Shown here: piece after piece, positions 26,506 to 45,737 of the stretch | Layout of the letters: every line of letters begins with the position of its first letter | How positions within the stretch are numbered: position 1 is the stretch's first letter | Assembly (NCBI GenBank): GCA_024854585.1 | Contig: GCA_024854585.1_4323.1 | Reading direction: 5' to 3' (one strand) | Source of the DNA: a phage | DNA length: 45,809 nt | Program-made: the position numbers and the translations under genes | The notes under the pieces: model-generated | Databases searched by the model: none | What the model saw: only the letters and a program-made list of their open reading frames with translations | What the model was told of the DNA's origin: nothing

Positions 26506-26526
26506 AAAAGCCCCGAAAGGGGCTTT
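26505..26526. terminator. Bidirectional terminator aaaaagccccgaaaggggcttt
   Basis: Between convergent tailspike (+) and HNH pseudogene (-). Confidence 0.6.
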
Positions 26527-26534
26527 ATCTTTTA

Positions 26535-27020
26535 TCAGAAGTAAAACAGTTCTGCTTGCTTCCTTGCCTCTAATGCGGACCCAAACGTTTCGAATCGTCC
26601 GAGGTGTATTTTTCGACTGTTTACAGTTATGGATGCGTCATATTTTCCTTTATTAAAATGTACGCCTCTGTAACCTGTTTTATTGTTGACTCTTACACCT
26701 AAATTGCGCATGTTTCCTGTTCTGTCGGTTTTACTGAGGTTGCTGTAGGCATTGTTTTCTCTGTTCCTGTCAATATGGTCAATTTCAATATCACCATTCA
26801 AAGAACCTTCAACGAAAGCAACCGCAAGCCTGTGCGCCTGGAATCTATCTCCGTGGATGTTTATGCCTATTTATCCATGCCTAAGCGAACCGGCCCGCGA
26901 ACCCATCTCTACACGCCGAGATGTGGGAAGAATCCAAGAAAAGATTCCTGATTCTTTATTGTATGATAGGTGACGCATTGCTGCGTCAACCATATCTTTT
27001 GTTATTTCTTTGTATTTCAT
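26535..27020 (-). pseudogene. HNH-AP2 homing endonuclease interrupted by in-frame TAA (at 26871..26873)
   Basis: ATG 27020 reads MKYKEIT...GSLRHG then TAA then IGINIHGDRFQAHRLAVAFVEG...DHIDRNRENN...YRGVHFNKGKYDASITVNSRKIHLGRFETFGSALEARKQA in the same frame. Confidence 0.6.
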
Positions 27021-27023
27021 ACG

Positions 27024-27440
27024 TTAAAATGGAATATCCGAATCAAACTGCTGTTGTGGTTGTGGTTGTCTCTGCTGCTGATGTTGCTGTTGTTGTCTTT
27101 GCTGCTGCTGTTGTACACCATCACCACGCTGACTAAACTCAAGTCGAGGGTTATTCATGTTAATCGTTACGTAAGTCTTACCATCTTTATCACGAACATC
27201 AACAGCCAGGCTTTCAGCGCTAACGCTAACAACTTTACCCTCTTTAAATGCATCGTTGTACCAATCTAACATTGACTCTTTCGCGAAGAAGACTGCGCGG
27301 TAGTTACTATACTGAGTTTGCCCATCTTTATCCTTGTATCGCTCACTTAAGTCAACTGCAAACATTTTCCAGCTACCATTAGCATTCTGACCTTCCTTAG
27401 TGAATGGAGCGCGGCGAATCTGACCAGTAATTACGTGCAT
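27024..27440 (-). CDS. ssb: Single-stranded DNA-binding protein
   Basis: 138 aa; OB-fold-like N-terminal region, Gln-rich linker, C-terminal acidic tail ending DSDIPF. Confidence 0.75.
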   Translation of the reverse strand: MHVITGQIRRAPFTKEGQNANGSWKMFAVDLSERYKDKDGQTQYSNYRAVFFAKESMLDWYNDAFKEGKVVSVSAESLAVDVRDKDGKTYVTINMNNPRLEFSQRGDGVQQQQQRQQQQHQQQRQPQPQQQFDSDIPF

Positions 27441-27479: not shown

Positions 27480-28130
27480 TCAGAATGTGTCGATTTGTTG
27501 TGATTCTACTTCAATCTTTTCTTCAGGACTACTTTTTTCTGCGACTCTCTTTGGTGTTGCTGGGTTGAAGCCAGTTGCTGCGTTTGCTTCAATCTCTGCT
27601 TTTCGCTCGATAATATGAGGCTCGAAAACCTTCCATCCTGCCGCATCAAGTGATTGCTTAGCATCCTTCCAAACGTTACGAAGCTCATCGAGCGTATTAC
27701 ACTTCTCAAGTTCTCGCTTAAAGTCTTTGACACCCTTGGCTGCCAGATTGCCATCATCATCTGCCTGGCTAAGGCCTAAGGCTGCTGTGATTCCGTAGCG
27801 ACGAGCGTATGTAAGCGCGGATCCGTAACCTTGAGCATCATTCTTACTGATTGGGACTATCATCAAGAAGCTAACCCACTCTCCAGATTCAGCATGAAAC
27901 AGTTTTGTCTCAACCCTCATACGGTTGGTTTGTTCATCATCAAGCACGCTCTGGAACATAACCAAGCCGCACTCATCTAAGCCTGGCTCAACAGCCGCCA
28001 AAACGTCCTCTAAGGTTGCATACTTATTCTTTAAGTGAGAGTTCTGCTTAGACTTTTCAGCCTTCGCAAATAGCGATTTGGCAGTGTGTAGCGCGTTTAA
28101 AATTGATTTGCATGATTCTGAAATTTGCAT
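27480..28130 (-). CDS. Erf-like ssDNA annealing protein
   Basis: 216 aa; KNKYATLEDVLAAVEPGL and GSALTYARRYGITAALGL...DDDGN patterns reminiscent of the ERF family; sits between exonuclease and SSB. Confidence 0.5.
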   Translation of the reverse strand: MQISESCKSILNALHTAKSLFAKAEKSKQNSHLKNKYATLEDVLAAVEPGLDECGLVMFQSVLDDEQTNRMRVETKLFHAESGEWVSFLMIVPISKNDAQGYGSALTYARRYGITAALGLSQADDDGNLAAKGVKDFKRELEKCNTLDELRNVWKDAKQSLDAAGWKVFEPHIIERKAEIEANAATGFNPATPKRVAEKSSPEEKIEVESQQIDTF

Positions 28131-28185: not shown

Positions 28186-28205
28186 TTTAGCAATTCGTGC
28201 TATAT
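28186..28205 (-). promoter_or_regulatory. Palindromic promoter/operator motif copy
   Basis: tttagcaattcgtgctatat overlapping exonuclease stop; TATGAT hexamer and AACGAACGAGG leader before the Erf-like gene ATG. Confidence 0.55.
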
Positions 28206-29168
28206 TTCGTCTCTATACTTCCTCATATCCCACTCAGGAACATCTAAATCAATCTCTGTTGCGCCCATTGCATAACCTGGCCACACATCATTCTCTTTGC
28301 ACTTTTTGTAAGTGGCAAGCGCCTCTAAATACATCCTGCGACCAACCTTCAGTTGCTCTTCTGTAATGTTGTAAAGCATTGGTAGGTAAGGCTCCTCTTT
28401 CTCGATCGCAAGTAGCCTTACTTTTGTTTTTCTTTTTTCATTAAAAGCCCTAACAAAAACATCGTGCTGTAGCGCCATTTTTGCAAGATAACCATGCTTG
28501 AATGCAAGTCTACCAAACTCATGAGGTGATGCGCTGGATGTCGTCTTAAGGTCGGTAATGCACACAACCCCATCAACAACATCTACGTGGTCAATTCGAA
28601 TCTTCACTCCGACGCCGAGAATCTCACCGAAGATTGATAACTCTTTCTGCGCCGTCTCGCTATTCACGATTGCGCTGTACGCTGGTATATTGCAAAGAAC
28701 TTCTCGCATAGACACAACTTTGTCATAGTCTGCCGCGCTAACTAGCTCCTTACACTCTACAAGCGCTTGCGCGCTCTCCTGCTGCTCAATTAGCCATTTA
28801 ACAGGCCAATCCTCACCAGAACGATACATCATCTCTACTAGCTCGCTATACCCCTTCCCGGACGTGCCGGCTACGCCAACTTTTTTAAGCGCTGCCGATA
28901 ATCCGGCTTGGCTTGTAATTAATCCTTCAATCGCGTCAAGGTCTGTAGCTCGAAGGTATTCTTTATCAAACATGTCACCTTCTAGGATGTACGTGTGACT
29001 CAGCGTTCCAAACTTAAGAGCCTTTCTATCATTATTGCGCTGCTTGAACTTCCACTTTGCTGGTGAGCCCTGAATAATCTCGACAAGTGAGCTACCGGAG
29101 ATGTGTTCAGTTTCAGCGTGGTAAGCCTCGTTGCTTAGCTCCTCTCTCGTAAAAACTTTAAAGCTCAT
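28200..29168 (-). CDS. PD-(D/E)xK recombination exonuclease (YqaJ/Cas4-like)
   Basis: 322 aa; ...IRIDHVDVVDGVVCITDLKTT (D...D.K nuclease core); first gene of recombination module. Confidence 0.5.
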   Translation of the reverse strand: MSFKVFTREELSNEAYHAETEHISGSSLVEIIQGSPAKWKFKQRNNDRKALKFGTLSHTYILEGDMFDKEYLRATDLDAIEGLITSQAGLSAALKKVGVAGTSGKGYSELVEMMYRSGEDWPVKWLIEQQESAQALVECKELVSAADYDKVVSMREVLCNIPAYSAIVNSETAQKELSIFGEILGVGVKIRIDHVDVVDGVVCITDLKTTSSASPHEFGRLAFKHGYLAKMALQHDVFVRAFNEKRKTKVRLLAIEKEEPYLPMLYNITEEQLKVGRRMYLEALATYKKCKENDVWPGYAMGATEIDLDVPEWDMRKYRDEI

Positions 29169-29171
29169 ATC

Positions 29172-29366
29172 CTATTCCTTAACCTTAACTACTTTAACAG
29201 ATTTCATATCTTCCTCAGTAAAGTACCCGGTCAGCACATCCCGGGCTTCTTCTTTAGTCTCGAATCTGTCTGCTTCGCTCTTATCTGTTGTGTACCCAGC
29301 TGGGCCGCCAAAGTAGCAGTCTCCGAACAGTGCATTGTTTTTCTCTTTGATAATGTAGTAGGTCAT
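29172..29366 (-). CDS. Hypothetical small protein
   Basis: 64 aa ORF directly upstream of exonuclease. Confidence 0.45.
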   Translation of the reverse strand: MTYYIIKEKNNALFGDCYFGGPAGYTTDKSEADRFETKEEARDVLTGYFTEEDMKSVKVVKVKE

Positions 29367-29673
29367 TTCTGCATCTCTCTATGGTTGATTGCTTTCGATT
29401 AGTTAACTATATAGTCAGCGCCATAGCCAGTCCAATTGGTTTTGCCAATCGTTGATTTAAGTTTACGTGTGAATGCTTGTAATTCCGTGTAGGCATTGCC
29501 ACTTGTTACGTAAAATGGCATCTCAGCCCAGATATAGCTCAATGTAACCATCGTGTATATCGTGTATACCGTTTCTTGCAGAGGGGTGAATTGGTATAGC
29601 TGCCACGCAATACTGTATAAATCCACATGATATTAAAATTATAACCGGAACACTCTATGGAAGTAGTTACATG

Positions 29674-44792: not shown

Positions 44793-45737
44793 TTACGCGA
44801 AGGTGATGCCTTTGATTACAGCCATCGTCAGAGGGCGATAAACAATCAATCCCGTCGCTTTTGATGTTACAGGATAGCGGAAATGCAGGTCTTTAGGTTG
44901 AGCTGGAAGCACGTTAGTAACCTCTGGAATCTCAATACTCATATTGAGTGGATCCTTCTCAAACGCCAGAGCAGCTTTGCCACCTGCGCCATCGTAGTTA
45001 TCCAGGAACTGCAGATAACGCAGATTGATGCCAGAGTTGTTGGTAGCAAACAGCTGGGCGTAACTGATAGAGGTGTTAGGAACCAGTTCTTGCATCAGGC
45101 GGCGAGCGGAGGCAGGCAGCAAGATATCAGTTGCGGTGTGAGTGCCATTAGTCGCAGTCTCGATTGCATCAATAAGTGCGGTAATATCAGTCATGGCGGC
45201 AGCTGCAGAGCTCCACGCACCACCAGAAACAACGTTGTTGATGTTCGGATGATTGAACACGCTAGGAATTCCGTGCGGTGTAGAGCCTGACCATACCAGT
45301 TTATCCAGCAGGTTATCATGCGCTTCGAATGCAAGAGCCTGTTTGCGAGCCGACAGTGACTGACCAGTTGCCGCACCTGCTTTGATTTCGTCAGTGGAGA
45401 TCAGGAACGCGTTACCAAAGCGGAACACTTTACCCTGTTTCTCGGTCATAAACGCATCAACCAGCGGCAAGTCGTCAGAGTAATCGGCGATAATCTGAGC
45501 AATGCCAACGCCGTCAAATTCTGGATATTCGAAATATTTCGCATGACCAGGGATTTCATTGGTCACAGGGAAGATATTAACAACGGAGTTGTCTGCATAT
45601 TCTTTTTCGTAAGCACGTGCCAGATTGGCGGTCAGTTGCTTAACAGTCCAGATACCAGCGGCATCGGCTTTGTCTACGCCCATTTGCTCGAGGTGAGCGG
45701 TGATTTTTGCTTGTTCTGCATCAAATTTAATGGCCAT
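44793..45737 (-). CDS. Major capsid protein
   Basis: 314 aa; first gene of right-hand structural block, followed by terminator; completes the decoration-to-capsid order if the window is circularly joined. Confidence 0.6.
   Translation of the reverse strand: MAIKFDAEQAKITAHLEQMGVDKADAAGIWTVKQLTANLARAYEKEYADNSVVNIFPVTNEIPGHAKYFEYPEFDGVGIAQIIADYSDDLPLVDAFMTEKQGKVFRFGNAFLISTDEIKAGAATGQSLSARKQALAFEAHDNLLDKLVWSGSTPHGIPSVFNHPNINNVVSGGAWSSAAAAMTDITALIDAIETATNGTHTATDILLPASARRLMQELVPNTSISYAQLFATNNSGINLRYLQFLDNYDGAGGKAALAFEKDPLNMSIEIPEVTNVLPAQPKDLHFRYPVTSKATGLIVYRPLTMAVIKGITFA

Follow-up and report, generated by a model that had tools for sequence, protein, structure and literature searches.

The window, meaning the whole 45,809-nt stretch of phage DNA analysed here, contains a disrupted HNH-AP2 homing endonuclease gene directly behind ssb. 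We consider, with a probability of about 0.8, that it represents a recently mobile, freestanding element at the 3' end of ssb that was inactivated by a C-to-A change, turning the Tyr50 codon TAC into TAA. Genes of this family, and their decay, are familiar; the particular allele and a well-defined insertion site are what set this case apart. The original prediction of an HNH-AP2 homing endonuclease gene with an in-frame ochre codon is borne out by Pfam, by a family profile, by the structural model of the intact homologue P0002 and by the polymorphism of the site. Three readings of the stop had been put forward. The evidence favours decay and gives readthrough nothing beyond the preserved frame, while sequencing error is possible and less likely.

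The window spans the entire, circularly permuted genome of a T1-like (Drexlerviridae) lytic siphovirus, found as a single contig in the assembly of an E. coli isolate. The genome is considered complete and circularly permuted because its gene order closes across the contig ends: the terminal genes (40-561 and 44793-45737) are neighbours in CEB_EC3a. The contig was checked for terminal redundancy or overlap, and none was found. The phage was probably carried over or contaminating, rather than present as a prophage. Its DNA is ~88-90% identical to that of vB_EcoS_CEB_EC3a, DTL, SU57 and others.

The endonuclease gene forms the end of a leftward exo-erf-ssb recombination cluster (Table 1). Its ATG is located 3 nt past the ssb stop and is not preceded by a Shine-Dalgarno sequence of its own. 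The layout suggests that the gene is co-transcribed with ssb and translationally coupled to it. The stretch of the terminator hairpin is common to relatives with an empty site, being 95-100% identical in many cassette-free phages, and the CEB_EC3a record annotates terminators at the same place.

Table 1. Features of the disrupted endonuclease locus and related genes in the window.
Feature	Position	Strand	Details
Disrupted HNH-AP2 homing endonuclease frame	26535..27020	-	161 codons plus terminal TGA; ochre at codon 50
Premature ochre TAA, codon 50	26871..26873	-	TAC (Tyr) in relatives; C-to-A transversion at 26871
49 still-translatable codons: part of the N-terminal beta-sheet DNA-contact domain, without nuclease motif	26874..27020	-	ORF 26871..27020; secondary structure from the model
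HNH (His-Me finger) core, residues 61-106: AHRLA helix, EIDH strand, NN..NL, N..N	26703..26840	-	Downstream of the stop; family-invariant residues kept
AP2-type DNA-binding domain with intact sequence (three strands, one helix; residues 113-160)	26541..26684	-	Profile and fold matches
88-aa ORF with TTG start, C-terminal remnant of the broken gene	26535..26801	-	EJQ7674221.1, locus tag N0N85_004474
Putative inserted cassette, 489 bp	26538..27026	-	Spans the TAA now ending ssb through the final sense codon of the endonuclease
ssb, 138 aa, C-terminal DIPF tip	27024..27440	-	phrog_44 single-strand DNA binding protein, E=1.7e-29
erf, recombination cluster	27480-28130	leftward	
exo, recombination cluster	28200-29168	leftward	
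Bidirectional intrinsic terminator hairpin, AAAGCCCC-GAAA-GGGGCTTT	26507..26526		Between the cassette and the convergent tail-fibre gene
Convergent tail fibre/tailspike gene, 875 aa	23878..26505	+	Bounds the locus, outside the element
Intact HNH_3/phrog_99 endonuclease gene, 165 aa	12674-13171	+	
Intact HNH_3/phrog_99 endonuclease gene, 178 aa	16607-17143	-	

On the minus strand, the frame opens with ATG at 27018-27020 and runs through 49 sense codons to the TAA, which takes the place of codon 50 (sequence and ORF listing). Past the TAA, 111 further codons stay open in the same frame up to a TGA at 26535-26537. The predicted start at 27020, the stop, the continuation of the frame to 26535 and both ORFs, of 49 aa and of 88 aa (TTG 26801), are thus confirmed by the sequence. 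The translation reads MKYKEITKDMVDAAMRHLSYNKESGIFSWILPTSRRVEMGSRAGSLRHG, the stop, IGINIHGDRFQAHRLAVAFVEGSLNGDIEIDHIDRNRENN...YRGVHFNKGKYDASI...ARKQAELFYF, and includes every motif that had been quoted for it: RHG-stop-IGINIHG, AHRLA, DHIDRNRENN, YRGVHFNKGKYDASI and ARKQA. The part behind the stop still matches HNH_3 when taken alone (E=4.9e-5), and over the whole frame the protein shares 76-95% identity with its homologues from related phages, which are mostly intact. For these two reasons the continuation after the stop is not a product of chance. A protein-guided scan of IMG/VR returned only distant homologues, at <=46% identity, which do not help in comparing the numbers of intact and broken copies at this site. 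The 49-aa fragment itself matched no Pfam family. The public label of EJQ7674221.1, which covers the 88-aa ORF, is "hypothetical protein N0N85_004474 [Escherichia coli]".

With Tyr restored at codon 50, the protein matches Pfam HNH_3 (PF13392) over residues 61-101, with 33.8 bits against a gathering cut-off of 24.8, as well as the HNH endonuclease family phrog_99 (PHROG 99; E=2.8e-46). The window frame has all of the family's invariant HNH residues, D81, H82, N90, N94, L95 and N106, and with them the Asp-His general base and the conserved Asn residues of a beta-beta-alpha-metal nuclease. G116, G119, A129, G141 and A149, likewise invariant, are present too. Compared with Pfam AP2 (PF00847) as a single sequence, residues 115-159 score 17.0 bits (E=0.0074), which is below the cut-off of 33.3. 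Because this score is sub-threshold, the AP2 assignment rests on profile and structure evidence. A family profile built from 20 members matches the AP2/ERF structures WRI1 (E=1.9e-12), ERF096 (4e-5) and AtERF1 (4e-4), and also I-HmuI (1u3e, E=1.1e-10). Half of the members (10/20) match Pfam AP2 individually, the best with E=1.5e-9.

The AlphaFold2 model was obtained for P0002, an intact homologue that is 84% identical (mean pLDDT 88.9). It consists of an N-terminal helix and beta sheet (residues 1-61), the AHRLA helix (62-71) and a beta-beta-alpha nuclease core (79-108), formed by strands 79-82 and 95-98 and helix 100-108. A flexible linker then leads to a three-strand-plus-helix AP2 fold (120-160). 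The model superposes on the AP2 domains of TEM1 and AtERF1 with 1.0-1.2 A rmsd over 36-44 residues (probability 1.00). In a Foldseek search of the PDB, the top match is I-HmuI of Bacillus phage SPO1 (PDB 1U3E), which has in common with the family an N-terminal beta-sheet DNA-contact region followed by a His-Me (HNH/HNN) core. Residues 36-103 of I-HmuI align to the family profile, and this stretch includes the Gly-Tyr where the window stop sits. Major differences can also be observed. I-HmuI, with only ~24% identity to the window family, is encoded within an intron, and its C-terminal DNA-binding modules are helical and HTH, whereas the window gene is freestanding, encodes an AP2 domain and is truncated at codon 50.

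The TAA lies upstream of the whole HNH core, and the window holds no uninterrupted ORF able to yield the nuclease domain at this locus. Since the stop falls at codon 50, the only product that the gene could give would be without the entire nuclease and AP2 parts. The window copy therefore reads as a pseudogene of the HNH family and not as a functional member.

The prediction had placed the stop exactly where similar proteins often have Tyr, and the homologues agree. Of 16 homologues aligned to P0002, 15 have Tyr at position 50, and this residue is nearly invariant (at least 90%) in an alignment of 17 homologues. In the P0002 model, Y50 is the first residue of the beta strand 50-55 in the N-terminal sheet. 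Comparison with the orthologous gene, which had been proposed as a check, gave TAC at codon 50 in all five relatives for which DNA was read (L001, L002, L004, L005 and L006). As every readable relative has TAC, the lesion amounts to a single C-to-A change, and parsimony with three outgroups assigns it to the window's own branch.

Besides the stop, 5 missense and 4 synonymous changes map to this terminal branch, every one of them downstream of the TAA. All pairwise dN/dS ratios lie at 0.12-0.23, with no difference between the parts on either side of the stop. Relaxed constraint is not detectable, and the changes on the terminal branch are too few to show it; these data neither support nor contradict a recent inactivation. 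The low dN/dS, together with the invariant HNH and AP2 residues kept after the stop, indicates that the gene was selected until recently and that the stop is recent. Purifying selection thus acted on the endonuclease gene for nearly all its history.

In the empty sites of DTL and CEB_EC3a, ssb is directly followed by the terminator. The sequence there is ...CCATTC TGA TAAAAAGATAAAGCCCC, with a further form of the continuation, ...CCATTC TGA TAAAAAGATAAAGCCCCTTTCGGGGC; the ssb-terminator junction of this type is GATATYCCWTTCTRA, then the terminator. Occupied sites read ...CCATTT TAA NNT ATG AAA TAC AAA GA. In the window, ssb ends with ...CCATTT TAA CGT ATG, and the right side of the cassette reads ...TAC TTC TGA TAAAAGATAAAGCCCCTTTCGGGGC with the same terminator. 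The TGA at the end of the endonuclease frame is the counterpart of the ssb stop in the empty-site allele. The insert thus appears to give ssb a new stop codon and to take the old one for itself. The boundaries of the cassette are ambiguous by ~3 nt at a TT(C/T) repeat.

The same left junction is present in six occupied alleles: those of the window, L001 (E6), L002 (BEK7), L004, L005 and L006. The ATG follows the ssb stop after 3 nt in all of these except L002, which has ATA there, after a 13-nt duplication. Presence and absence of the cassette are therefore precisely polymorphic at one site among otherwise collinear relatives. The conserved 3' end of ssb, comprising the codons of the DIPF tip and the terminator, is the likely homing target. 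The conserved DIPF-tip codons are likely to be the kind of conserved site that homing endonucleases favour.

The closest copy is L004, the Logan contig SRR28381453_394, with 96% nucleotide identity over the cassette. In 100-nt segments, the window and L004 are 92-98% identical over 27095-26546, against 62-97% in the flanking ssb, erf and exo, where most values are below 90% with a few short peaks. The block of high identity begins ~70 nt inside ssb. In this one pair, the cassette and a short flank are more similar than the backbone. The pattern fits a recent lateral spread with a short co-conversion tract, and ordinary phage mosaicism could mimic it. The ssb linker (27040-27140, minus strand) contains a Gln-rich CAG/CAA repeat tract, QQQQQRQQQQHQQQRQPQPQQQ, which varies in length among relatives. 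Just upstream of the high-identity cassette block, identity dips to 74-76% because the length of this repeat differs.

Two sister copies are damaged in other ways. L004 (5001-5486) keeps Tyr50 and carries a nonsense mutation of its own, GAG-to-TAG at codon 151. The gene caller gives a product of 150 aa, so the AP2 helix is cut off. In Escherichia phage BEK7 (MN158209.1, L002 2990-3260), the start is changed from ATG to ATA, the junction CCCATTTTAACA(C) is duplicated over 13 nt, and the 3' half of the gene, from ~codon 86, is replaced. The BEK7 record annotates a minus-strand "hypothetical protein" over the degraded cassette.

Other copies are intact. P0026, a protein record of 161 aa with Y50, falls into the same 90%-identity cluster as P0001, the protein of L004. 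Intact orthologues with 76-78% identity are present in 18 records named "Campylobacter phage", namely L001 (MG065643.1) and 17 sister records. More generally, the orthologues of Hanrivervirus phages (E6, A16a and others, MG0656xx) and of Logan and ENA contigs (P0002-P0007, P0026) occupy the same post-ssb site and are 161-163 aa long. They have 63-95% protein identity and TAC at codon 50 and, unlike the window gene, are uninterrupted. In E6-type orthologues, the downstream junction and the terminator differ from those of the window. As a side observation, the "Campylobacter phage" records give C. jejuni as the host, are flagged UNVERIFIED, contain no annotation and are classified as Hanrivervirus. 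Their host label looks doubtful, and the orthologue follows a coliphage-type ssb.

The ssb-stop site thus holds empty, intact and three independently damaged alleles (window, L004 and BEK7). Such a mix of empty, intact and broken sites is the classic pattern of gain, fixation and degeneration.

It is possible, if unlikely, that the stop is an error of sequencing or assembly. The A at 26871 would then be a wrong consensus base, and codon 50 of the real phage would be TAC or TAT, in a gene that is intact and active. Consistent with this, the TAA allele is found in one assembly only, and, apart from codon 50, the gene has no defect and keeps every invariant residue. An exact look-up of the 49-aa product found no second copy of the allele. 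A 41-mer with N at the variable base had no match in IMG/VR, nor did 31-mers in JGI metagenomes and GTDB genomes, and the allele was not found by megablast against complete E. coli genomes. A second C-to-A change making TAA (TCA-to-TAA, 29399-29401) is present in another small gene, along with a 2-nt insertion, and could hint at a signature of damage or error. However, the change at codon 50 is a substitution and not a homopolymer indel. The core genes checked against CEB_EC3a are all full length and stop-free, with 77-98% amino acid identity, and none of them is disrupted. The only disruptions are located in two dispensable genes: all three disruptive differences fall within ~0.9 kb of such genes in 45.8 kb. 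This clustering would be very unlikely for random errors and is expected of mutations filtered by selection, which makes an error less likely. The sister copies, moreover, carry independent real disruptions.

A less probable reading is that the remnant is still used. Translation from the TTG at 26801 or from another internal start would produce a stand-alone AP2 DNA-binding protein with a minimal His-Me finger, serving as a domesticated regulator or nickase. Exaptation of the DNA-binding domains of phage endonucleases is known elsewhere, in CapR (PMC10448857) and in the AP2 proteins CasPR (bioRxiv 10.64898/2026.02.23.707548). In favour, nothing interrupts the 88-aa ORF, which retains the complete AP2 domain along with D81 and H82; a weak AAGG precedes its TTG by 4 nt, and the NCBI record lists a protein for it. 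Against this, the TTG and the bases upstream of it are plain conserved coding sequence in the intact relatives, and the truncation is recent and unique to the window genome. In the model, the nuclease core has the AHRLA helix and the N-terminal domain packed against it, and the fragment is without both. Among close relatives, no conserved stand-alone family of such length was found. By analogy, the truncation might even be a first step of domestication, in which an internally initiated C-terminal fragment, such as that of 26535-26801, would retain a minimal His-Me finger and AP2. We give this slightly less credence still. Were it true, the domesticated fragment would be a sequence-specific DNA-binding protein acting at the ssb/tail-fibre junction or against competing phages, analogous to CapR or CasPR.

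Least probable of all is suppression of the ochre, for instance by a host suppressor inserting Tyr, so that a low level of full-length nuclease is made and toxicity perhaps limited: the frame is perfectly kept past the stop, with no other positive evidence, and we rejected programmed readthrough or recoding since the stop occurs in no relative and is thus not a conserved recoding site, and the sole tRNA in the window is Arg(tct) and not a suppressor. TAA is the ordinary terminator here: of 42 window genes that were checked, 26 end with it, among them ssb, 3 nt upstream of the endonuclease gene. In E. coli, no other stop codon is terminated as efficiently as UAA. Folding of the RNA at the stop and beyond it gave no structure above the level of shuffled sequences (z=-0.01).

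For the preferred reading, inactivation of a recently mobile endonuclease gene, the following scheme can be proposed. The intact ancestor would have been co-transcribed with the exo-erf-ssb operon and translated by coupling to ssb. Its product would have bound DNA through the N-terminal beta-sheet domain and the C-terminal AP2 domain. The I-HmuI-like His-Me finger would then nick or cut the predicted target, the cassette-free ssb/terminator junction of a co-infecting relative, and recombinational repair would copy the cassette with a short flank into the recipient genome. Homing and endonuclease activity of the lineage are in this sense predictions from sequence. In the present genome, only the 49-residue N-terminal peptide could be made, and probably nothing beyond residue 49. 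With only this peptide, the element would be immobile and drifting towards loss. Its present state would correspond to the degeneration phase of the homing-endonuclease life cycle.

This life cycle runs through invasion, fixation, degeneration and loss (Goddard & Burt 1999; Burt & Koufopanou 2004, both as cited in PMC2248197). The empty, intact and three independently damaged copies match it among the sampled relatives. The model was made for intron and intein endonuclease genes of yeast and is applied here to a freestanding phage gene.

Freestanding HNH/HNN-AP2 endonuclease genes have been described in the Xanthomonas phages Xp10, OP1 and Xop411 and in the coliphages T1, Rtp and T5; for the Xanthomonas phages and T5, degeneration of the inserted genes has also been reported (PMC2248197). 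Magnani et al. 2004 is the source to which PMC2248197 and PMC10448857 refer for HNH-AP2 endonuclease genes. In ICP1, the HNH-AP2 endonuclease gene IPA-HNH is split by a frameshift (PMC10448857). Like the window gene, these phage genes encode two domains, are freestanding and intergenic, are distributed patchily among close relatives and exist in variously degenerate copies. Unlike them, the window lineage occupies one site, the ssb stop codon of Drexlerviridae. In the window, the lesion is a single nonsense substitution in an otherwise intact gene, and represents the earliest visible stage of decay.

The importance of the locus lies mainly in annotation: the 88-aa "hypothetical protein" is better described as part of a pseudogene of an HNH-AP2 homing endonuclease. 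For Drexlerviridae, it also illustrates the homing-endonuclease life cycle on a small scale. The ssb-stop site could serve as a natural system to measure rates of homing and decay in T1-like phages. That homing probably targets the 3' end of ssb has a bearing on phylogenies built from sequences of the ssb region.

The two intact HNH_3 genes of the window (Table 1) are only ~26-45% identical to the broken gene or to CEB_EC3a gp38. The window is without the primase-adjacent HNH gene that is present in CEB_EC3a and L004. These differences in HNH_3 genes indicate that the content of endonuclease genes varies at several sites among these phages. A premature stop in the portal gene was considered and rejected; the gene has a diverged C-terminal tail and no nonsense mutation.

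The second broken accessory gene (29172-29626, minus strand) is a homologue of CEB_EC3a gp44 and of a 125-aa gene in L004, and belongs to phrog_35664, a family of unknown function. Its TCA-to-TAA change is another ochre-making C-to-A, and the 2-nt (TA) insertion lies ~25 nt further on. The C-terminal 64-aa ORF of this gene (29172-29366) is intact and corresponds to the stand-alone family phrog_5247.
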